Assembly: GCA_029259775.1 (NCBI GenBank)
Contig: JAJDEN010000020.1
Location: forward strand, 78,846-142,845
Origin: Planctomycetota bacterium
GTDB lineage: Bacteria; Planctomycetota; PLA2; JAEUHO01
Length of the DNA stretch: 64,000 bases
Reading direction: 5' to 3'
Shown here piece after piece: positions 1 through 60,095 of this stretch. The position numbers and the translations under genes were made by a program. The notes beneath the pieces are model-generated. The model made no database searches. It saw nothing but the letters and a program-made list of their open reading frames with translations, and was not told where the DNA came from. The first letter of the stretch is position 1. Every line of letters begins with the position of its first letter.

Positions 1-620
1 AGTTCGAAGCCCAGGAAGAGGCGACGCGCGTCATCATCGTGCTGTCGGCGCTTTCCCTGCTCGTCATGTTTCTCGTGCTCTTCGCGCACTTCCGCTCGGT
101 CAACCTGTCGCTGCAGGTGTTGCTGAACATCCCCGCCGCGTTCCTCGGCGCGGTCGCCATGATCGTGCTCACGGGCCAGACGATGTCGGTAGCGACCCTG
201 GTCGGCCTCGTGGCGCTCGGCGGCGTCGCATCGCGCAACGGCATCCTGCTCATCGACCACTACCTGCATCTCATGCGCGACGAGGGCCTGCCGTTCGGCG
301 ACGACATGATCGTGCAGGCGGGCCGCGAGCGCATCGTGCCCGTCCTGATGACGGCGCTCACCAGCGGCATCGCGCTGCTGCCTCTCGTGCTCGCTCCCGG
401 CCAACCCGGGCGCGAGCTTCTCTACCCCGTGGCCACCGCCATTGTCGGCGGTCTCATCTCGAGCACGCTCCTGGACGTCTTGTTGACGCCCGGGGTGTTC
501 AAGATCTTCGGCCGCGCCGCGGCTGAGGCCCACATGGAGCGCTACGATCAGGACCTGATCGAGAGCGCGCAAACCACCCTGACGTTCGACGATCCCAGAA
601 CCGAGGAGTCCCCCTCATGA
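1..620 (+). CDS. Heavy-metal efflux RND transporter (CzcA/CusA family), C-terminal fragment; 5' end lies outside the window
   Basis: Frame-3 translation gives TM10-12-like segments typical of HME-RND pumps (LLIDHY, VPVLMTALTSGIALLPL, GGLISSTLLDVLLTPGVF). The stop TGA at 618-620 overlaps the ATG of the next gene. Confidence 0.85.
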   Translation, partial: FEAQEEATRVIIVLSALSLLVMFLVLFAHFRSVNLSLQVLLNIPAAFLGAVAMIVLTGQTMSVATLVGLVALGGVASRNGILLIDHYLHLMRDEGLPFGDDMIVQAGRERIVPVLMTALTSGIALLPLVLAPGQPGRELLYPVATAIVGGLISSTLLDVLLTPGVFKIFGRAAAEAHMERYDQDLIESAQTTLTFDDPRTEESPS

Positions 621-2279: not shown

Positions 2280-2873
2280 TCACATCTTGTAGCCCATGTC
2301 GCCGTGCTGCGCGAGTCGCTCTTCGTAGAAGCCCTCGGGGACATCGGGCAGGCCCGCGCCGTCCAGCCAGCGGTTGAAGAAGTTGAAGATCGCAGCGACC
2401 GTCAAGGCGTCGAAGAGCGCGTGGTCGCTCCAGCCTTCCTCCTTGGCGGCGTCGACGTGCGCTTGCGACGTCTTCGCGGGCTCGTCGTTGACGATCGCGA
2501 CGTAGCGCAGCAACGCCTTGTCCTTCTCCGGGAGATCCGAGTCCTCGAAGTCGTGGCACACGGCGTCGACCAGTGCCTTGTCTTCGAGGAGGTGGGCCGC
2601 GACCGCGGCGTGGGCTGAGGTTCAGAACACGCAGTGGTTGCGCGCCGAGACGAAGGCTGCGATCAGCTCACGCTGTCCCGCCGAGAGATCCGAGGGGCCG
2701 CGCATCACTTCGTCCATGAAGTTGCAGAGGTGCGGCGTTGCCTCGGGCCGTCCCGCGAAGAGGTAGTAGATGCCCGGCGGCTCGACGCCCTGCTTGCGGC
2801 TCGCCTCGATGACACGGCCGAAGCGGCCGGTCGCCTCGCCGCGCTTGGCGTCCAACAAGTCCTTCAGGAACAT
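2280..2873 (-). CDS. AhpD-like / carboxymuconolactone decarboxylase family peroxidase-related protein with an in-frame TGA at 2622-2624; candidate selenoprotein (CxxU) or nonsense pseudogene
   Basis: ORFs 2622..2975 and 2280..2561 are in the same frame, separated only by one TGA. Read-through gives ...ARNHCVF-U-TSAHAAVAAHLLEDKALVDAVCHDFEDSDLPEKDKALL, matching the AhpD CxxCxxxH motif with U at the second Cys. ATG at 2873 is preceded by GGGAGG. Confidence 0.6.
2596..2609 (-). other. SECIS-like hairpin candidate (GCCGC-GGUC-GCGGC) starting 12 nt after the in-frame UGA
   Basis: Inverted repeat read from the minus-strand mRNA. Apical loop contains GU, about 19-20 nt after the UGA. Short stem, not diagnostic on its own. 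Confidence 0.25.
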
Positions 2874-2976
2874 GATCCGGCCTCCCAGGGGTGATGGACG
2901 ACATCCTAGGGCGCAGGAAGCGGCCATGGGCAGGCTAGAGTGGGAACGGCCACGTGAGACCGGGAGGCGACCCACG

Positions 2977-9337: not shown

Positions 9338-9685
9338 CTACCCCTGCAACGGGCGCACTTCGACCGGGCCTTCGCACGCGGCGGCCCCGCGCTTCGCCCA
9401 CTCGCGGGCGGCGTCGAGATCCGCCACCTCGATGATCCAGAAGCCCCCCATCTGTTCCGGGCACGGGGCGTAGGGGCCGTCCGCGATGGTCGCTTCGCCG
9501 TCGGTCGAACGCGCGACAGCTGCGGTTGACGCGGGCTGCAGCCCTCCTGCGAACAGCCACGCGCCTGCGGCCTGCAGGTCCGCGTTGAAGGCGCCGACCT
9601 GGGCGATCATGCGCTGCGCGTCGGGTGTGGAGAAGTCGACGTCATAGGCACCGTCGTGCCACACGGAGAGCAGGAACTGGGGCAT
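9338..9685 (-). CDS. YciI-like (DGPF) domain protein
   Basis: Translation MPQFLLSVWHDGAYDVDF...GPYAPCPEQMGGFWIIE matches the YciI family. ATG at 9683-9685. Confidence 0.7.
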   Translation of the reverse strand: MPQFLLSVWHDGAYDVDFSTPDAQRMIAQVGAFNADLQAAGAWLFAGGLQPASTAAVARSTDGEATIADGPYAPCPEQMGGFWIIEVADLDAAREWAKRGAAACEGPVEVRPLQG

Positions 9686-9798
9686 CGCCTCAGTCTCGCG
9701 AGGAGGCGGCGCGCTGGCAACCCCGGAAACGTGCGTACCGAGGCCGGACCCTCGCCTTGTGCCTGGTTCCTTCCTAGGCTCCGGAGGGAGGCATCGAC

Positions 9799-10278
9799 AT
9801 GCAAGCGGATGAGCCAGCGGCGAAGAAGAAGGCCGCCAGGAAGTCGGCACCGGTCGCAGCGAACGATGCCGCCAAGCCGAAGCTGCTCTCAGGCGGAAAC
9901 CCTCAAGTCGCGAAGGCCGACGGCGACGCCCCCGTGCAGATCTACATCGCAGCCATGCCGGGCTGGAAACGCGACGTCGGACGTGGCCTCGATGCGCTCA
10001 TCGCGCGCACCGTTCCCAACGTCCGCAAGGCCGTGCGATGGAACACGCCCTTCTATGGCATCGAGGGGCAGGGCTGGTTCCTCGCCTACCACTGCTTCAC
10101 GAAGTACCTCAAGGTGACCTTCTTCCAGGGTACGTCCCTGCGCCCCGTCCCGCCCGTCGCGTCCAAGCAAGAGAACGTGCGCTACCTGCACATCCACGAG
10201 GACGACGAGTTCGACGAGGAACTCGTGACGTGCTGGATTCAACAGGCCTCCGAGCTACCCGGCGAACGGTGCTTCTAG
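9799..10278 (+). CDS. DUF1801 (YdhG-like) domain protein
   Basis: Strong RBS GGAGGGAGG. Conserved YdhG-like core (VRWNTPFYGIEGQGWFLAYHCFTKYLKVTFF). Confidence 0.7.
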   Translation: MQADEPAAKKKAARKSAPVAANDAAKPKLLSGGNPQVAKADGDAPVQIYIAAMPGWKRDVGRGLDALIARTVPNVRKAVRWNTPFYGIEGQGWFLAYHCFTKYLKVTFFQGTSLRPVPPVASKQENVRYLHIHEDDEFDEELVTCWIQQASELPGERCF

Positions 10279-10293
10279 TCGCGGCCACGGAGG

Positions 10294-10986
10294 TCAACCG
10301 GGCTCGCCGAGGGCCGCCCGAAGCAAGGCGAGAAACAGTGGATGCGGCGCACCAGGGCTCGTGGAGAGCTGCGGCTGGTAGAGCGTTCCCACGAAGAACG
10401 GGTGATCTGGACGCTCCACCGCGCGGACGTCTCCGGTGTCGTCTACGGCGGCGATCCTCATCCCGCCCGCCGAAGCGAGTTCGTGAAGGTCCGGCCGTAG
10501 CCCGTAGTCGCATGTGGTCCTCTCGGTCGAGGTCAGGACTCCATGGGCACGCTGGAGCGACGATCCCGGCGTGAGCAAGACTTCGATCTCTCGATCTCGA
10601 AGCGAGCACGCCAGCTTCGTGATCACGGCGTCGCCGCCCTCGCCGTACTCCGCGTGTGACGCATCAGCGTTGCCCAGGATGTTTCGAGCGTGCTCGACCA
10701 GCACATGCTGAAACCCCGCTCAGGTACCAAGGAGAGGCAGGCCACGCTCCCGCGCATGCCGTATGACCGCGTACGCAGCTCCCTCGACGTCATAGGGACT
10801 CCCCGGACCGACGATGACGCCAGACCCCAGACGCCGGGCGTCACCGTCCCACGCGGGCGTGCGGACGACCCTGGGCACGACGGGGATCGACAGCTCCGCG
10901 CCAGCGTGCTCCAAGGCGCGGCATGTGGCCCGATGAAAGTCGTGGTCTGGGCGGAGGTCCATCAGCACCGAGACTTCGATCGTCAT
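10294..10986 (-). CDS. Class I glutamine amidotransferase (CTP-synthase C-domain-like) with an in-frame TGA at 10720-10722 replacing the catalytic Cys; candidate selenoprotein or nonsense pseudogene
   Basis: ORFs 10720..10986 and 10294..10704 share a frame and are separated by one TGA. Read-through gives ...RGLPLLGT-U-AGFQHVLVEHARNILG, against the GATase1 / CTP synthase motif GICLGMQ...EFARNVLG. Confidence 0.55.
10699..10710 (-). other. SECIS-like hairpin candidate (CAGC-AUGU-GCUG) starting 9 nt after the in-frame UGA, nested inside a GUUUC...GAAAC outer pairing
   Basis: Read from the minus-strand mRNA. GU in the apical loop about 16 nt after the UGA. Weak on its own. Confidence 0.2.
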
Positions 10987-11113
10987 CGTGGAATGCTACT
11001 CGACGTCCAGCCGCCAACGAGGGCGACATCGTGCCCGCACGGCGCCAACCCATCGACGCGCAAAACGCAGCCGCGCTCCTCGTTCGGCCGCGGAGACGCC
11101 CTGTCCGAATCAC

Positions 11114-11175
11114 TGCGGCGATCCGTGCGGCGATCCGTGCGGCGATCCGTGCGGCGGCCGTGCGGCGGCCGTGCG
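11114..11175. repeat. Tandem repeat (TGCGGCGATCCG)x3 + (TGCGGCGGCCG)x2 in the 515-nt intergenic region
   Basis: Direct repeats read from the sequence. Lies between the divergent GATase and S41 peptidase genes. Confidence 0.6.
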
Positions 11176-14020: not shown

Positions 14021-14209
14021 ATGGAAACGCTCAAGATCGTCCTGGTCATCGGTCTTGGAGCGAGCGCGGTGGCGATCGGTCTGGCCTACCTCATGTCCAT
14101 CTTCCATGGCAGCACCGTGTCGGGCGACGAGATCTTCCGGTACGTCGTCATCAGCTTCGTCGTCACGGCCACTGCGCTGGTGACGGTACGGCGCCGCCTC
14201 AAGAACTGA
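14021..14209 (+). CDS. Small two-TM membrane protein, hypothetical
   Basis: 62-aa hydrophobic ORF immediately upstream of the nucleotidyltransferase-like gene. No homology recognised. Confidence 0.3.
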   Translation: METLKIVLVIGLGASAVAIGLAYLMSIFHGSTVSGDEIFRYVVISFVVTATALVTVRRRLKN

Positions 14210-29207: not shown

Positions 29208-29231
29208 CGCTGGCTCACCTCCGGCCCGGAT

Positions 29232-29252
29232 GTTGGCCTTCCGAGGGCCAAC
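29232..29252 (+). terminator. Hairpin GTTGGCC-TTCCGAG-GGCCAAC downstream of mtnP; possible terminator, no T-tract
   Basis: 7-bp inverted repeat read from the sequence. Confidence 0.25.
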
Positions 29253-29270
29253 CGCAACCTCCGTGGGTCC

Positions 29271-31337
29271 ATGAGGTTTATCCTCTTGGCACCCGCCCCG
29301 GAGATCCAGCCTGTGAGCAACCCGACCGCACGCGCGTCCGACTCTCGCCTCAGCCCGCTGCCGGGGAAAGGCCTGCTGCGCCTCTTCGCAGGGGCCATGG
29401 CGCTCCTCGTGGTCATCGCCGGCATCACCGACATCGGCCATGCCCGCGAAGATGGCGTCCGCGACGTCGCGGACTGGCGCCGGGTCGTCGCCGCCGTCGA
29501 CGGCACGATCGAGGCCAAGCTGGCGGAAGAAGGCGTGAAGCCCGCCGCCCGCTCGGGCGACAGCGAGTTCCTGCGCCGCCTCTACCTCGACGTGCTCGGC
29601 ACCGTGCCGACACCCGAGGAAGCCGACGCCTTCCTGAACGACAAGCGCGAGGACAAGCGCGCCCGCAAGATCGACGAGCTCATGGCCTCGGAGACCTTCG
29701 CCGAGAACCAGGCGTCGTTCTGGTTCCGCACCCTGACCGGCTTGAGCGTCCATCAGCAACGCCAGCGCGAGGGCCAGGGCGGCCGCTACGTCACGGGCGA
29801 CGCCGGCCAGAAGTTCCACGAGTGGCTCAGCGGCCAGATCAGCCAGAACCGCCCGTGGAGCGAGATGGCCGAGGACCTGATCTCCGCTACCGGTCGCACC
29901 GACGAGAACGGCGCGGCGGTCTACCTCGCCCGCTGGGAAGGCGAAGTCAACAACACGGCCGGCGCCGTCGCCAAGCACTTCCTCGGCGTCCAGATCCAGT
30001 GTGCCCAGTGCCACGACCACATCTACGAGCCCGACTGGAAGCAGAAGGACTTCGAGGGCATGGCCGCGTTCTTCGCGCTGACATCGGTTCGTCGCGTGCC
30101 CGAATACGGCCAGCTGCGCCAGCTGCGGCGCGCCATGCAAGACATCCAGCAGGGCAAGGCGCCCGGCACCTCCAAGCAGGGCAAGGGTCTCGACCTCCGC
30201 CGCAGGAAGGGCAAGGGCCGCCCCGGCGCCGACATGCCTGGTGAGATGGGCGGTGAGATGGGCGGCGAGATGGGCGGAGGCAACGCGGCCCCGATGACCC
30301 GCTCGGACGTCCAGAAGAAGCTCCGGGACCTCGCCAAGTACCGCAACATCGTCGAGGTCCGCGACGCGGCCGTGAACCCGCGCTACGCCGACCGCATGAT
30401 GCGCCGGCTCAAGAACGCGAAGAACGAGGAGCTGCGCGCCCGCGCGAAGCTCATGTCGACCACGCCCAAGTTCTGGCTGGCCTCGCAGGCGGCCGACTTG
30501 CCGGGCGTGTCGCGCCGCTACCTGCTGGCGCGCTGGGTGACCTCGAACGAGAACCCCTACTTCGCCAAGTCGCTGGTCAACCGCATGTGGGGCCAGTACA
30601 TGGGCCGCGGCATCGTCGATCCCATCGACGACTTCAACAGCTTCCAGGCGCCGTCGCACCCCGAGCTCCTGAAGCTCCTCGCCGAGGACTTCCGCGCGAG
30701 CGGGCACGATCTGCAGCGCCTGCAGAAGATCCTGCTCAACTCCGCGACGTACCAGCGCAGCTCGCGTTGGAGCGCCGAGGAACAGCCGGACCCGGCGCTG
30801 TTCGCGAAGGCGCCGGTTCGCTCGCTCAACACGGAGCAGCTCTACTTCGCCCTCGTCCGTGCCACGGGCATGGAGAAGCGCCTCGATCGCGTCTCACGCC
30901 GCAACGGCCAGGCGATCCAGCGCGCCATCTTCTCGACCTTCACGTTCGTCTTCGATGACGACGAGGGCAAGGCCGAGGAGGACTTCTCCGGCAGCATTCC
31001 GCAGGGCCTGTTCCTCATGAACGGCGAGCTGATCCAGCGCGCCTTGAGCGGCGGCCGCGACCTGCCCTCGGGTGCGTCGGACAGGCAGCGCCGCAACCGC
31101 CGCAACCGCATGCGCAACCGTCCCGCGCAGACCATGCTCGAAGACCTGCTTCGCACGGAGACGAGCGACAGCGCTCGCGTCGATCAGCTCTACGTGCGCG
31201 CCTACGGACGCCACGCCGATGCGGCCGAGCGCCGCGGCGCCGTGAGTTTCGTGAAGTCCAAGGGCGGCGGTGCCGCGGCCTACGAGGACTTCTTCTGGGC
31301 CATCCTCAACTCCGCCGAGTTCATGACGAACCACTAG
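29271..31337 (+). CDS. DUF1549/DUF1553 (PSCyt2/PSD1) domain protein
   Basis: FLRRLYLDVLGTVPTPEEADAF; GVQIQCAQCHDHIYEPDWKQKDFEGMAAFF. Contains a (GEMG)3 micro-repeat. Confidence 0.75.
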   Translation: MRFILLAPAPEIQPVSNPTARASDSRLSPLPGKGLLRLFAGAMALLVVIAGITDIGHAREDGVRDVADWRRVVAAVDGTIEAKLAEEGVKPAARSGDSEFLRRLYLDVLGTVPTPEEADAFLNDKREDKRARKIDELMASETFAENQASFWFRTLTGLSVHQQRQREGQGGRYVTGDAGQKFHEWLSGQISQNRPWSEMAEDLISATGRTDENGAAVYLARWEGEVNNTAGAVAKHFLGVQIQCAQCHDHIYEPDWKQKDFEGMAAFFALTSVRRVPEYGQLRQLRRAMQDIQQGKAPGTSKQGKGLDLRRRKGKGRPGADMPGEMGGEMGGEMGGGNAAPMTRSDVQKKLRDLAKYRNIVEVRDAAVNPRYADRMMRRLKNAKNEELRARAKLMSTTPKFWLASQAADLPGVSRRYLLARWVTSNENPYFAKSLVNRMWGQYMGRGIVDPIDDFNSFQAPSHPELLKLLAEDFRASGHDLQRLQKILLNSATYQRSSRWSAEEQPDPALFAKAPVRSLNTEQLYFALVRATGMEKRLDRVSRRNGQAIQRAIFSTFTFVFDDDEGKAEEDFSGSIPQGLFLMNGELIQRALSGGRDLPSGASDRQRRNRRNRMRNRPAQTMLEDLLRTETSDSARVDQLYVRAYGRHADAAERRGAVSFVKSKGGGAAAYEDFFWAILNSAEFMTNH

Positions 31338-31394
31338 TCGGCCGCCACGAGACCAACCCGCCAGCCCCCGTTCTGCATCCTTCAGGAGTCCGTC

Positions 31395-32768
31395 ATGTGC
31401 AAGCAATGTGACAACGCCACGCCCGCCCCCGTCTCGCGCCGCAACGTCCTGCGCTACAGCGCGGGCGCGATGGCCGCCGCCGGTGTGCTCGCGACGCCCT
31501 TCCGCCACGTCTTCGCGGAGGAAGGCACGGATCAGGTAGACAAGGCCATCGCGAACCGAGGCAAGGCCAAGCAGGTCATCGTGCTCTACATGAGCGGCGG
31601 CGCGAGCCACCTCGATACGTTCGATCCGAAGCCGGGTGCCGCCACGCAGGGCGACACGCGTGCGATCGACACCAACGTGACGGGCGTCAAGATCGCGAAG
31701 ACATTGCCCCAGATCGCCAAGCACATGAACGACATCGCGCTGATCCGCGGCATGTCCAGCAAGGAAGGCAACCACGAGCGTGCGCGCTACTTGATGCACA
31801 CCGGCTACCCGCCGACGCCGACCGTGGTCCACGCGGGCCTCGGCTCGATCGTCTCGCACGAGATGGGCGTCAAGACGGCCGAGCTGCCCGAGTACATCGC
31901 CATCAACGGCCCGGGCGCACGTCCCGGCTACCTCGGTGTGCACCACGCCCCCTTCGCGATCCAGGTCCGTGCCCCCGAGGGCGGCTCGGACGAGCGCGGT
32001 CGCCGCCAGCGGCCCGGCCAGAAGACGGGCGGCGCCGTCGTGCAGAACCTCACGCTGCCCAAGGGCGTCACGAAGGAGCGTCGCGACGAGCGCGTCGGCT
32101 TCCTCGAGAAGCTCAACCAGCGCTTCAGCAAGGACCGTACGAAGAGCGTCGGCGAGGCGCAGCAGGCCATGTTCGAGCGCGCCCGGCGCCTGATGGACTC
32201 GCCCAAGAACACCGCCTTCGATCTCAAGAGCGAGAAGGCCTCCACGATTGCGCGCTACGGCAAGACGCGCTTCGGCATGGGCTGCCTCATGGCCCGCCGG
32301 CTCATCGACGAGGGCGTCAAGTGCGTCGAGGTCCTCATGGGCGGCTGGGACACGCACGACGACGGATTCAACAAGGTCCGTGGACTCAACGCACAGCTCG
32401 ACCCGGCCGTCGCCGCGCTGATGGACGACCTCAAGTCGTCCGGCAAGTTCGACGAGACGCTCATCGTGTGGGTTGGCGACTTCGGTCGCACGCCGCGCAT
32501 CGACACGGGGCGTAACGGCCGCGGTCACTACCCGCGCGCCTGGTCGGCGTGGCTCGCCGGCGGCGGCGTCCAGGGCGGCCGCGTGATCGGCAAGACCGAC
32601 GCGAAGGCCGAGACGGTCGTCGACGGCGCAGTGAAGCCCGAGGACTTCTACGCCTCGATCATGCACGCCACCGGCATCGATGCGTCGAAGACCTTCTACA
32701 CAGGCCAGGGTCGGCCGATCCAGATCGTCTACAAGGACGGCCGCGTCGTGAAGTCGCTGTTCGCCTGA
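31395..32768 (+). CDS. DUF1501 domain protein (sulfatase-like, Tat signal)
   Basis: RBS AGGAG. Twin-arginine-like leader SRRNVLRYSAGAMAAAGVLA. Canonical partner of DUF1549/DUF1553. Confidence 0.8.
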   Translation: MCKQCDNATPAPVSRRNVLRYSAGAMAAAGVLATPFRHVFAEEGTDQVDKAIANRGKAKQVIVLYMSGGASHLDTFDPKPGAATQGDTRAIDTNVTGVKIAKTLPQIAKHMNDIALIRGMSSKEGNHERARYLMHTGYPPTPTVVHAGLGSIVSHEMGVKTAELPEYIAINGPGARPGYLGVHHAPFAIQVRAPEGGSDERGRRQRPGQKTGGAVVQNLTLPKGVTKERRDERVGFLEKLNQRFSKDRTKSVGEAQQAMFERARRLMDSPKNTAFDLKSEKASTIARYGKTRFGMGCLMARRLIDEGVKCVEVLMGGWDTHDDGFNKVRGLNAQLDPAVAALMDDLKSSGKFDETLIVWVGDFGRTPRIDTGRNGRGHYPRAWSAWLAGGGVQGGRVIGKTDAKAETVVDGAVKPEDFYASIMHATGIDASKTFYTGQGRPIQIVYKDGRVVKSLFA

Positions 32769-57238: not shown

Positions 57239-57730
57239 ATGCCCCCCGCCATGAGGCGCGACGCCACCCAGATCCTCCGGATGCTGCAAGCCACGGCCGC
57301 CGAGACGCGCGACCGGGACGAGCTCGCCGCGACCGCGCTCCGGGGCCTGCGCGACACGCTGCCGCAAGCGTCGTGGAGCGGCATCTACTGGCTGGAGGGC
57401 CAGGAACTGGTACTGGGACCCTTCCACGGCCCCGCGACGGATCACACGCGCATCCCCGTCGGGCGCGGCGTCTGCGGGACGGCCGTCGAGGAAGGCGCCG
57501 ACCAGCGGGTGGATGACGTCCGCGAGCGGGCCAACTACCTCGCCTGCTCCGCGTCGGTCCGCAGCGAGTTGGTCGTGCTGATCCGCGCACGCGACACCAT
57601 CGTCGGGCAGTTCGACTTCGACGCGGAGGAGGTGGGTGCGTTCGATGCCGACGACCTCTGTGTGGTGCGCGCCGTGGCGGATGCGTTCGGCGCCCTGATC
57701 GCGGCGCTGTCGGATGCGCCGGGCGGCTGA
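57239..57730 (+). CDS. GAF domain protein, free methionine-(R)-sulfoxide reductase-like
   Basis: IPVGRGVCGTAVEEG and GQFDFDAEE blocks typical of fRMsr-type GAF proteins. Start chosen among nearby ATGs. Confidence 0.65.
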   Translation: MPPAMRRDATQILRMLQATAAETRDRDELAATALRGLRDTLPQASWSGIYWLEGQELVLGPFHGPATDHTRIPVGRGVCGTAVEEGADQRVDDVRERANYLACSASVRSELVVLIRARDTIVGQFDFDAEEVGAFDADDLCVVRAVADAFGALIAALSDAPGG

Positions 57731-57764
57731 GCGCGACCGGCTGATCCCGGGCTACGATCCCTTC

Positions 57765-58865
57765 ATGCCCACACGCACGAGCATGCAGCGCCTCCGACGA
57801 CCCCGACGCCGACGCTACGTCCTTCGCCGTCTCGGGTGCCCGCTGCTGGTCGCCTGCCTTCTGGCCTTGACGGTCGCCCGCGCCGAGGGCGAGGAGGGCG
57901 CGCCGGAGCGGGCGGGCCCGCTCGTCCTCGAGAAGACGCTGATCGAGTACGGCGTCGTCGAGCAGGACGCGGAGTACACGGCCGAAGTCAGCTACGAGAA
58001 CAAGGGCAGCGCACACATCACGAAGCTGCGTGCCAAGGCCGGGTGCAGCTGCGCTTCGATCGGCCTCTCCGAGACAGCCCTCGCGCCGGGCGCCCGCGGC
58101 AAGCTCACGGCGCGCTTCCGAACGCACGGCTTCCTCGGTGTCGCGACCAAGAAGGTGAACCTGCTCTACGAAGAGGACGGCACGCCGCGACGCCTGGTGC
58201 TGAAGCTCAAGATCTCCGTGATTGGCGGCGTCTTGATCGACCGGCTGCATCTCGGCGAGGTCCTCGACGGCACGGCGCCCGAGGGCACGGCCCTGGTGCG
58301 CTGGCACGTCGGCGTCGGCAAGCCCTTCAAGATCACGTCCGTGACGGTTCCGGGCCACCCCATCGAGACGAAGGTCGAGCCCTACGAGCCGGGCCCGGGC
58401 GTCGCCTACAAGGGCTGGCTCGTCCACTTCCGCTTCACGCAGCCGCCACCGAAGGGCGTCTTCTCGGCGAAGGCGATCGTGATCACGACGCATCCGAAGC
58501 AGGGCAAGGTCCTCCTCCCCCTCACGGCACGCGTCCTCGGCAAGGTCTGGGTGCAGACGAGCCACCTCTACCTGGGTCTGGTCGCGCAGGGCAAGGGCAA
58601 GAGCGCCAGCGTCACCTTCCGCGGCTTCAACAAGACGATCAGGCTCGGCAAGGTCTCGGCGCGCGCCCGCAAGGGCGTGCTGCAGGTCTCGATCGAAGAC
58701 ACCGCGACCCGCCGTGGACCCGCCAAGAAGCTCACGGTCACCGTCCCGAAGGACGCGCCACCGGGCTCCCTGGACGACGTGATCGAGCTCCACACCGAGG
58801 TGCCCGGCGAGAAGCTGGTCACGATCGACGTCCGCGGGCGGATCTTCGTGCCCGCGAAGCGCTGA
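57765..58865 (+). CDS. DUF1573 domain protein (two DUF1573 repeats), secreted
   Basis: Signal peptide. YENKGSAHITKLRAKAGCSCAS core motif. Confidence 0.7.
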   Translation: MPTRTSMQRLRRPRRRRYVLRRLGCPLLVACLLALTVARAEGEEGAPERAGPLVLEKTLIEYGVVEQDAEYTAEVSYENKGSAHITKLRAKAGCSCASIGLSETALAPGARGKLTARFRTHGFLGVATKKVNLLYEEDGTPRRLVLKLKISVIGGVLIDRLHLGEVLDGTAPEGTALVRWHVGVGKPFKITSVTVPGHPIETKVEPYEPGPGVAYKGWLVHFRFTQPPPKGVFSAKAIVITTHPKQGKVLLPLTARVLGKVWVQTSHLYLGLVAQGKGKSASVTFRGFNKTIRLGKVSARARKGVLQVSIEDTATRRGPAKKLTVTVPKDAPPGSLDDVIELHTEVPGEKLVTIDVRGRIFVPAKR

Positions 58866-58901
58866 GGGGGCCCTGTGCCGAGGCACCGCTACCATGGGCC
58901 G

Positions 58902-60095
58902 ATGCCCTGCCCCGCCACCCCCTCGCTCGCTCGCCTCCTGCTCCTCGTCGCAGGGCTGCTCCTGCTCGGCGGCCCCACGGCCCGCGCGGACGAGCCGCCG
59001 CTGGGCCCCAAGGGACCGGAGCGCGACAAGCGCCACGCGGACCTTGAGGTCGACCGCTACGAGCACGACTTCGGCTACGCGAAGCAGAACACCGTCAACC
59101 GGGCCGAGTTCACCTACACGAACAAGGGCAACGCGAAGGTCACGGGCATCCGCGCGCGAGGTGAGTGCGGCTGCAACGTCGCCCTGGTCAGCAAGCGCGA
59201 GCTCGCCCCGGGTGAGTCGGGGGTGCTGAAGGTCGAGTTTAACACCCTCACGCTCGGTGGCCACCTGTACAAGCGCATCCACCTCTACTCGAGCGACCAC
59301 ACGCGCGGCGAGTCGCTCATCGGGCTCAAGATCGCGATCGTGAAGGGCCTCGTCGTGCGCCCGCCTGGCCTCTCGTTCGGTGACGTGCAGCTCGGCACGA
59401 AGCCCGCGAAGTCCTTCTCGCTGCGCTGGTACGACGGCGTTGGCAAGCCATTCACCATCGAGGAGATCGACGCGCCCAAGGGCTTCGATGTCGTCAAGAC
59501 GGCGTACGAGGATCCGAAGGACCCTCGCTGGAAGGGCTGGCGCATCGAGCTCCAGCTCACCAGGGAACTGCCGCTCGGCATGTACTCTGCCGAGGTGCTC
59601 GTGCGCACGACGGACAAGGAACGCCCGCGCATCGTGACCGCACTCAGCGCCAACGTCTGCGGCAAGGTCTGGCTGCAGTCGCGCCGTCTCAGCTTCGGGA
59701 CGTTCACGCAGGGCCGCAAGCGCAGCTCGAGCATCAAGTTCCGTCCGTTCGACGAGACGGTCACCTTCGGCGAGGTGTCGGCGAAGTCGCGGAGCGGCCG
59801 CCTGCAGGTCGAGGTGAAGCCCGATCCCTACATGGGCGACAAGGGCGTGTGGAAGCTGATCGCGACCGTGCCCGTCGACGCGGCGGCCGGCAGCCTCGAG
59901 CAGGAGATCATCGAGCTCCACACCGGCGTGCCCGGTGAAGAGGTCACGCTGCTGAAGGTGCGTGGGCGGGTACGCCCCAAGAAGGGCGGTCGCGTGGGCC
60001 CGAAGAAGGGCCCCGCTGCGAAGGCACCGGCCGAGAAGGCTCCGGCCGAGAAGGCTGCCGCCAAGTCCACGGGAACCGGCGCCGATGGGCGCTGA
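58902..60095 (+). CDS. DUF1573 domain protein (paralog in tandem), secreted
   Basis: Signal peptide LARLLLLVAGLLLLGGPTARA. YTNKGNAKVTGIRARGECGCNVA. Confidence 0.7.
   Translation: MPCPATPSLARLLLLVAGLLLLGGPTARADEPPLGPKGPERDKRHADLEVDRYEHDFGYAKQNTVNRAEFTYTNKGNAKVTGIRARGECGCNVALVSKRELAPGESGVLKVEFNTLTLGGHLYKRIHLYSSDHTRGESLIGLKIAIVKGLVVRPPGLSFGDVQLGTKPAKSFSLRWYDGVGKPFTIEEIDAPKGFDVVKTAYEDPKDPRWKGWRIELQLTRELPLGMYSAEVLVRTTDKERPRIVTALSANVCGKVWLQSRRLSFGTFTQGRKRSSSIKFRPFDETVTFGEVSAKSRSGRLQVEVKPDPYMGDKGVWKLIATVPVDAAAGSLEQEIIELHTGVPGEEVTLLKVRGRVRPKKGGRVGPKKGPAAKAPAEKAPAEKAAAKSTGTGADGR

Follow-up and report, generated by a model that had tools for sequence, protein, structure and literature searches.

AhpD-like selenoproteins with a CxxU motif (COG2128; U denotes selenocysteine, Sec) were first reported in 2005 by Zhang et al., with 27 sequences from the Sargasso Sea (PMC1088965), and completed genomes were shown to contain them in 2006 (PMC1794560). 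Under the name "AhpD-like 1", they were fourth in abundance in the Global Ocean Sampling data (299 sequences with Sec and 902 with Cys; PMC2398784), and a 2026 review of prokaryotic selenoproteomes includes them as "AhpD-like protein, TIGR01926, CxxU". Here, we describe a 64-kb stretch of DNA from an uncultured member of the Planctomycetota (contig JAJDEN010000020.1; "the window" hereafter means this whole stretch), in which a minus-strand gene at positions 2873 to 2280 very probably encodes a protein of this kind, the UGA at its codon 84 being predicted to be decoded as Sec. A second gene, about 8 kb away, also contains an in-frame TGA.

The gene at 2873 to 2280 resembles the described AhpD-like TIGR01926 selenoproteins in its CxxU motif, in the Sec at the position of the second Cys, in its length of about 200 amino acids (aa), and in a hairpin inside the open reading frame (ORF) whose loop contains G. 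Nothing essential differs; the window copy comes from an uncultured Planctomycetota, and its hairpin stem has 5 rather than 6 base pairs (bp). With M. tuberculosis AhpD, PA0269 (2O4D), and the structures 3c1l, 2prr, and 6k40, it shares the CMD/AhpD helical core and the arrangement Glu-x11-Cys-x-x-Cys/Sec-x3-His, but AhpD and the AhpD-like structures use Cys, whereas the window protein has a predicted Sec and low identity to the structures. Furthermore, canonical ahpD adjoins ahpC and reduces AhpC, while the window gene has no ahpC or peroxiredoxin nearby. NF041238 ("AhpD_rel_CFYUT") and the CMD-like (PF02627) CxxU proteins ("AhpD-like 2") have the CMD fold and a CxxU followed by Thr in common with it, but NF041238 is a 357-residue model of which the window protein matches only the C-terminal third, and it represents a different subfamily. 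The features of the first gene are as follows.

2280 to 2873, minus strand: complete gene for a predicted AhpD-like (TIGR01926 / CMD-fold) selenoprotein; its translation has 197 sense codons plus a terminal TGA
2622 to 2624, minus strand: in-frame UGA, codon 84, predicted to be read as Sec; it aligns with the second Cys of CxxC
2280 to 2282, minus strand: true stop TGA, as read from the sequence and its translation
2881 to 2886, minus strand: Shine-Dalgarno-like GGGAGG, of presumed function, 7 nucleotides (nt) 5′ of the ATG at 2873-2871
2667 to 2669, minus strand: Glu69 codon, 12 residues before Cys81; nearly invariant in alignment A1
2631 to 2633, minus strand: Cys81 codon, first residue of C-x-x-U and presumed resolving thiol; invariant in alignment A1
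2610 to 2612, minus strand: His88 codon (CxxUxxxH), proton-relay His by homology; invariant in alignment A1
2596 to 2609, minus strand: candidate hairpin of the bacterial Sec insertion sequence (SECIS) type, GCCGC-GGUC-GCGGC, inside the ORF, encoding A-A-V-A-A and starting 12 nt after the UGA

An AhpD-like gene with a conserved in-frame UGA

A first-pass annotation of this DNA had described two ORFs in the same frame with exactly one TGA (2622-2624) between them. This description holds: the minus-strand ORFs 2622..2975 and 2280..2561 share one frame, and translation of 2873 to 2280 gives 197 codons with a single internal stop, the TGA at 2624-2622. The likely start is the ATG at 2873-2871, which matches the Met start of the orthologues; a GTG at 2975 was considered and disfavoured, as the orthologues begin at the Met equivalent to 2873. 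The geometry of two long ORFs with one stop between them was discarded as evidence because more than 200 same-frame pairs of long ORFs parted by one stop occur in the window (68.8% GC), so that such an arrangement tells us nothing by itself. Three features do rise above chance: homology that continues past the stop, the placement of the hairpin, and the conservation across genomes.

The 197-residue read-through protein, which includes ...RELIAAFVSARNHCVF-U-TSAHAAVAAHLL..., was compared with family profiles after replacement of U (the stop) by C. Its match to the NCBIfam family TIGR01926 ("peroxidase-related enzyme") scores 106.9 bits against a curated cut-off of 81.8 (E = 9.9e-31), and the scores for Pfam CMD PF02627 (54.6 bits against 23) and TIGR00778 ahpD_dom (29.9 against 27.8) also lie above their cut-offs. 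The first-pass statement that AhpD-like proteins are a recognised selenoprotein family is thus borne out, both by the TIGR01926 score and by a literature on the CxxU family that goes back to 2005. Membership in NF041238 was rejected because the score, 58.3 bits, falls short of the cut-off of 175; the match is confined to profile positions 213-334.

Around codon 84, the window reads ...ARNHCVF*TSAHAAVAAHLL, and the motif residues of the gene are E69...C81-V-F-U84-T-S-A-H88. In a collection of 5.8 billion proteins, full-length Cys homologues carry N-x-C-x-F-C-x-x-x-H, and the TGA aligns with the second Cys of this motif, in agreement with the earlier observation that read-through would yield the AhpD CxxCxxxH motif with the stop at its second Cys. 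Positions C81, C84, and H88 are invariant in alignment A1, and E69 is nearly so. Solved homologues (3c1l, 2prr, 6k40, 2oyo, and 2pfx, with E values from 8e-20 to 6e-13), described as AhpD-like or "uncharacterized peroxidase-related", align through the motif as well, nhcvfCtsah against NHCYYCLTAH. The proton relay consists of Glu36/Cys48/Cys51/His55 in PA0269 and of Glu118/Cys130/Cys133/His137 in M. tuberculosis AhpD (PMC3141380). The spacing of Glu69, Cys81, position 84, and His88 equals that of this relay, with Cys81 corresponding to Cys48 of PA0269 and to Cys130 of M. tuberculosis AhpD.

For the orthologue scan, one genome per species (GTDB representatives) was searched with the family alignment as the query, and the best 80 matches were taken. 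TGA stands at the aligned codon in 77 of these 80 species-representative loci, with conserved in-frame sequence on either side, and Cys in the other three (L034, L044, and L053). Here, the open frame of the 77 loci was judged on extracted segments around the codon, and the whole ORF is intact in the nine genes that were translated end to end. The first-pass annotation had named Cys versus TGA in orthologues as a check on its proposal, and this result, with the frame intact on both sides, speaks for it. The carriers of TGA span Planctomycetota, Acidobacteriota (many), Myxococcota, and Gemmatimonadota, and include cultured Myxococcota such as Myxococcus xanthus, Corallococcus, Archangium, and Vitiosangium; the closest relatives, metagenome-assembled genomes of Planctomycetota with 75-85% identity, have the TGA form. 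Several of the top protein matches are short fragments that begin just past the motif, and in the metagenome contigs from which these fragments come, the gene calls are of 83 aa plus 108-114 aa. Two further lineages were seen to carry the codon-84 TGA in the DNA of metagenome contigs.

In each of the four closest relatives, the gene is 594 nt long, with no insertions or deletions relative to the window gene. Upstream of the TGA, the ratio of nonsynonymous to synonymous substitution rates (dN/dS) against these four is 0.10-0.27; downstream, it is 0.11-0.24, and the dS values are 0.6-1.0. On this comparison, the 113 codons downstream appear to be translated and to be under the same purifying selection as the 83 codons upstream, which would rule out a dead gene as well as a nonsense mutation or an error in sequencing.

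The closest apparent Cys form is a 725-nt contig (L089, ENA ERZ5385936, coverage of about 1) with 72% identity, which has TGC at the codon (CHVCTSAH). It keeps a perfect SECIS-type hairpin, but its N-terminal region is unrelated or scrambled, and it may be chimeric, contain a read error, or have changed from Sec to Cys very recently. This sequence (P0001/L089) was dropped as the closest Cys control on account of its coverage and its scrambled N-terminus.

The hairpin and the proposed decoding mechanism

The hairpin GCCGC-GGUC-GCGGC that the first-pass annotation placed 12 nt downstream of the UGA is present at 2609-2596, and the distance from the UGA to the apical GGUC loop is 17 nt. In bacterial SECIS elements, 16-37 nt lie between the UGA and the loop (PMC10778597), and the spacing found here falls inside this range, with a G in the loop. 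The SECIS of the E. coli fdhF type is likewise a stem-loop inside the ORF just past the UGA, and the UGA-loop distance in the window conforms to its range, but the stem found here is shorter and simpler (5-6 bp, a 4-nt loop, and no bulged U), and we refer to the element as a candidate SECIS. The apical loop of E. coli fdhF also has GGUC, of which the G and the U contact SelB. Such an arrangement is rare in the window: only 11 of 1339 TGA triplets (0.8%, both strands) are followed at 9-14 nt by a perfect hairpin of at least 5 bp with a GU-containing loop, and the codon-84 TGA is the only one of the 1339 with a 4-nt loop at an offset of 11-12.

The hairpin was also compared across species, in an ungapped alignment (A2) of 75 distinct segments, each running 48 nt from the TGA. 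The consensus for the family, UGA-N11-CGCCGC-GGUC-GCGGCG, has a 6-bp stem, and standard pairs fill 97.3% of the cells over the six pairs in the 75 species; as a control, sliding the 3′ partners by 1-3 columns lowered pairing to 17-79%. The loops include GGUC in 48 species, AGUU in 17, and GGUA in 1, with a central GU in 66 of the 75. Both partners have changed in eight cells, which fall at two of the pairs: four from GC to UG, three from CG to UA, and one from CG to AU. In 500 column shuffles, neither the observed number of paired cells nor that of both-sided cells or pair types was ever matched, nor was the covariation score, while the number of pairs with a both-sided change (two) was matched by 38 of the 500.

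The two covarying pairs differ in what they ask of the protein. The pair of alignment columns 18 and 27 connects two Ala codons at their third positions and therefore covaries through synonymous changes alone. The change from GC to UG at columns 16 and 29, in contrast, requires the joint replacement of Ala by Ser (GCC to UCC) and of Ala by Gly (GCG to GGG), which is found in four species of Acidobacteriota (L042, L043, L054, and L062). In these four, the protein sequence tracks the structure of the RNA.

We propose that the product is a 197-residue thiol/selenol oxidoreductase, AhpD-like and of the TIGR01926 family. By analogy with the way in which bacteria are known to insert Sec, the hairpin at 2609-2596 would act as a SECIS inside the reading frame: SelB carrying Sec-tRNA(Sec) would bind it and deliver Sec with the UGA in the A site, and translation would run on until the terminal TGA at 2282-2280. 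In M. tuberculosis AhpD, the exposed Cys133, which is the second Cys, cross-links to Cys61 of AhpC, and Cys130 is partly buried (PMC6626918). Judging from the AhpD homologues, Sec84 would occupy the position of this exposed, attacking Cys, and its selenolate could attack an oxidised partner or substrate, either a peroxide or a peroxiredoxin-type sulfenate or disulfide. Resolution of the adduct by Cys81 would then give a selenenyl-sulfide, Glu69 and His88 would provide the proton relay, and a cellular thiol reductant would regenerate the enzyme.

Probable selenocysteine decoding and its alternatives

Several observations weigh against the decoding of codon 84 as Sec. A tRNA scan of the window found no tRNA and thus no tRNA-Sec, and a Pfam scan of its approximately 40 coding-like ORFs found no SelA, SelB, or SelD domain. 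Near the gene, the window contains no AhpC, peroxiredoxin, or other redox partner, and because of this the substrate part of the mechanism above can only be inferred. The stem in the window has 5 bp against the 6 of the family, its outer pair being C.C. The hairpin does not fold better than shuffled sequences, with a z-score of -0.35 and 68 of 200 shuffles folding equally well or better. Finally, the covariation is modest, as the hairpin overlaps a conserved peptide that the Cys forms keep too.

Some of these observations have a context that should be given with them. An Rfam scan of the window gave no match. At the 60 orthologous loci scanned for tRNAs, no tRNA-Sec was found beside the gene, a result that is uninformative, as selC need not be linked; and no conserved redox partner or peroxiredoxin neighbour was found at the orthologous loci searched. 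The third base of the His88 codon is the unpaired outer position of the 6-bp family stem, and the C.C mismatch arises because the next codon in the window is His and not Glu. Folding energy (z-scores of -0.35 and +1.23 were obtained) was given up as a significance test, as it does not discriminate at 69% GC, and positional frequency and cross-species pairing were used instead. In Cys-form genes with the same HAAVAA peptide (L090 and others), the stem is broken and the loop is CGUC, although this control comprises few sequences and the Cys form L044 retains most of the hairpin.

The absence of machinery genes and tRNA-Sec from the window and the stem one pair shorter than the family consensus would both suit a relic, that is, a former selenoprotein gene in a genome that has lost or lacks the Sec machinery, with translation ending at codon 84 and the downstream part only recently orphaned. 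We consider this very improbable. The 113 downstream codons have neither an insertion or deletion nor a stop, their dN/dS against four relatives is 0.11-0.24 at dS values of 0.77-0.98, a ratio not expected of a sequence that decays neutrally, and the second TGA-containing gene of the window, which is unlinked, is intact as well. The presence of the Sec machinery in the source genome is assumed on indirect evidence, of which this second gene is a part.

It is also conceivable, but very improbable, that the UGA is read through without selenium, by near-cognate insertion of Trp or Cys or by a local reassignment of the stop. TGA is a minority stop here (TAG accounts for approximately 70%), and such a genome could tolerate leaky decoding of UGA. 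Nevertheless, UGA is not reassigned genome-wide, because the gene's own terminator and 11-12 other coding-like ORFs of the window use TGA. Moreover, the TGA lies at the catalytic Cys and is followed by a hairpin of SECIS geometry with a conserved GU loop, and the family is curated as Sec-containing. The reading as a pseudogene, or as a TGC/TGT Cys codon altered by nonsense mutation or by an error in sequencing or assembly, has a next to negligible probability, since the one sequence in its favour, the low-coverage contig L089 with TGC and an otherwise intact hairpin, is unreliable, with a disrupted N-terminal part, whereas 77 independent species genomes, and several metagenome assemblies that are likewise independent, share TGA at this very codon, a pattern that separate errors or mutations could not produce.

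Decoding of codon 84 as Sec, the selenoprotein candidate of the first-pass annotation, is thus supported by the TGA in 77 of 80 loci, by the downstream dN/dS of 0.11-0.24, and by the conserved hairpin. As far as its sequence can tell, the first gene agrees with the AhpD-like TIGR01926 CxxU family in every criterion that could be tested.

The second gene, the neighbourhood, and annotation

The first-pass annotation had reported that a second gene approximately 8 kb away shows the same pattern, and had taken this as an argument against a random nonsense mutation. We confirm this gene at 10986 to 10294, and the argument drawn from it stands. Its features are as follows.

10294 to 10986, minus strand: class-I glutamine-amidotransferase domain that stands alone and is related to the C-terminal region of CTP synthase; predicted second selenoprotein gene
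10720 to 10722, minus strand: TGA replacing the nucleophile Cys, G-T-U-A-G, in the context ...PLLGT*AGFQH
10690 to 10704, minus strand: hairpin GUGCU-GGUCG-AGCAC, located 15 nt past the UGA; UGA-to-loop distance, 20 nt

A selenoprotein related to the CTP synthase C-terminus, with the motif GxUxG, is a listed family in the 2026 review. The second gene shares with this family the class-I glutamine-amidotransferase domain and the TGA at the nucleophile Cys, but differs in a score below the cut-off: its best NCBIfam match, NF004836, reaches 218 bits against an equivalog cut-off of 260, over profile positions 2-227 of 228. By this cut-off, it would be a divergent relative of the CTP-synthase C-terminal-related family. 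In an orthologue (L094), the equivalent codon is likewise TGA (A-T-U-G-G), and the protein search gave many C-terminal fragments (131-148 aa) that reflect the same split. The hairpin of the orthologue is GUGCUC-GUG-GAGCAC, and the evidence that the second-gene hairpin is a SECIS, a comparison of two distinct sequences, is weak. A Logan contig of 1738 nt from SRR15505517 (L095) is 100% identical over its full length to window positions 9406-11143, so that run contains the source organism or one of its clones. The two Sec-type genes lie on the same strand, with unrelated genes of both strands between them, and do not form an operon.

The window holds two predicted selenoprotein genes. The first-pass remark that two such genes in 64 kb would represent an unusually high density is not sustained, as two genes are too small a sample; bacterial selenoproteomes of up to 57-63 genes have been reported. 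A systematic search of the window for more coding pairs split by TGA yielded only ordinary adjacent genes, at 14207 and 58863.

Stop-codon usage in the window is peculiar in its own right. Of the approximately 40 coding-like ORFs of the window, 26-29 end in TAG, as do 28 of 38 in the nearest relatives among the Planctomycetota (L009-L012), and in this lineage TGA makes up approximately 25% of the stops and TAG approximately 70%, which is unusual at 69% GC; at Myxococcota loci of similar GC, TGA makes up approximately 65% of the stops. One could imagine a lineage with an unusually large selenoproteome, in which the depletion of UGA stops co-evolves with heavy use of Sec and of which the two genes are a sample, but we regard this as unlikely. 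The TAG bias could be a lineage trait unrelated to Sec, and the basis for any such idea is only two genes and approximately 40 stops.

The neighbours of the first gene are a lipoprotein, a secretin-domain protein, a fragment of a resistance-nodulation-division (RND) pump, and a His-rich protein. At 617-1633, on the plus strand, the window encodes an extremely His/Asp-rich lipoprotein with long HDxxH and DHEHD runs and no Pfam match, which lies directly after the sequence for the C-terminus of an AcrB-type RND pump (3-620, plus strand). This pair adjoins the AhpD-like gene in the relatives L009 and L011 too, and the lipoprotein may be a metal-binding or metal-efflux accessory. Elsewhere on the plus strand, at 29208-32768 and 57699-60095, there are a PSCyt2/PSD1 (DUF1549/DUF1553) and DUF1501 gene pair and two tandem DUF1573 paralogues. 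The PSCyt2/PSD1 and DUF1501 combination and the DUF1573 family are typical of Planctomycetota, and they fit the taxonomic placement given by the AhpD-like orthologues.

In the public records, both genes are called as two pieces with no Pfam match on record (88 plus 134-136 aa for the second), as seen for L001-L008, an ERZ27296333 contig, L094, and L095. For the first gene, gene callers leave two unannotated pieces (83 plus 108-114 aa) in every metagenome record examined. These split calls amount to a systematic annotation gap for both families. The window deserves an annotation with two Sec-containing coding sequences, and its source genome is expected to encode selA, selB, selC, and selD.

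In terms of biology, the gene described here belongs to a common and widespread selenoprotein family that has been catalogued since 2005, and it would add one further member to this known family, one that is present in most of its closest relatives. The 75-species alignment of its hairpin, in turn, offers a clean example of an RNA element that shapes a conserved peptide.

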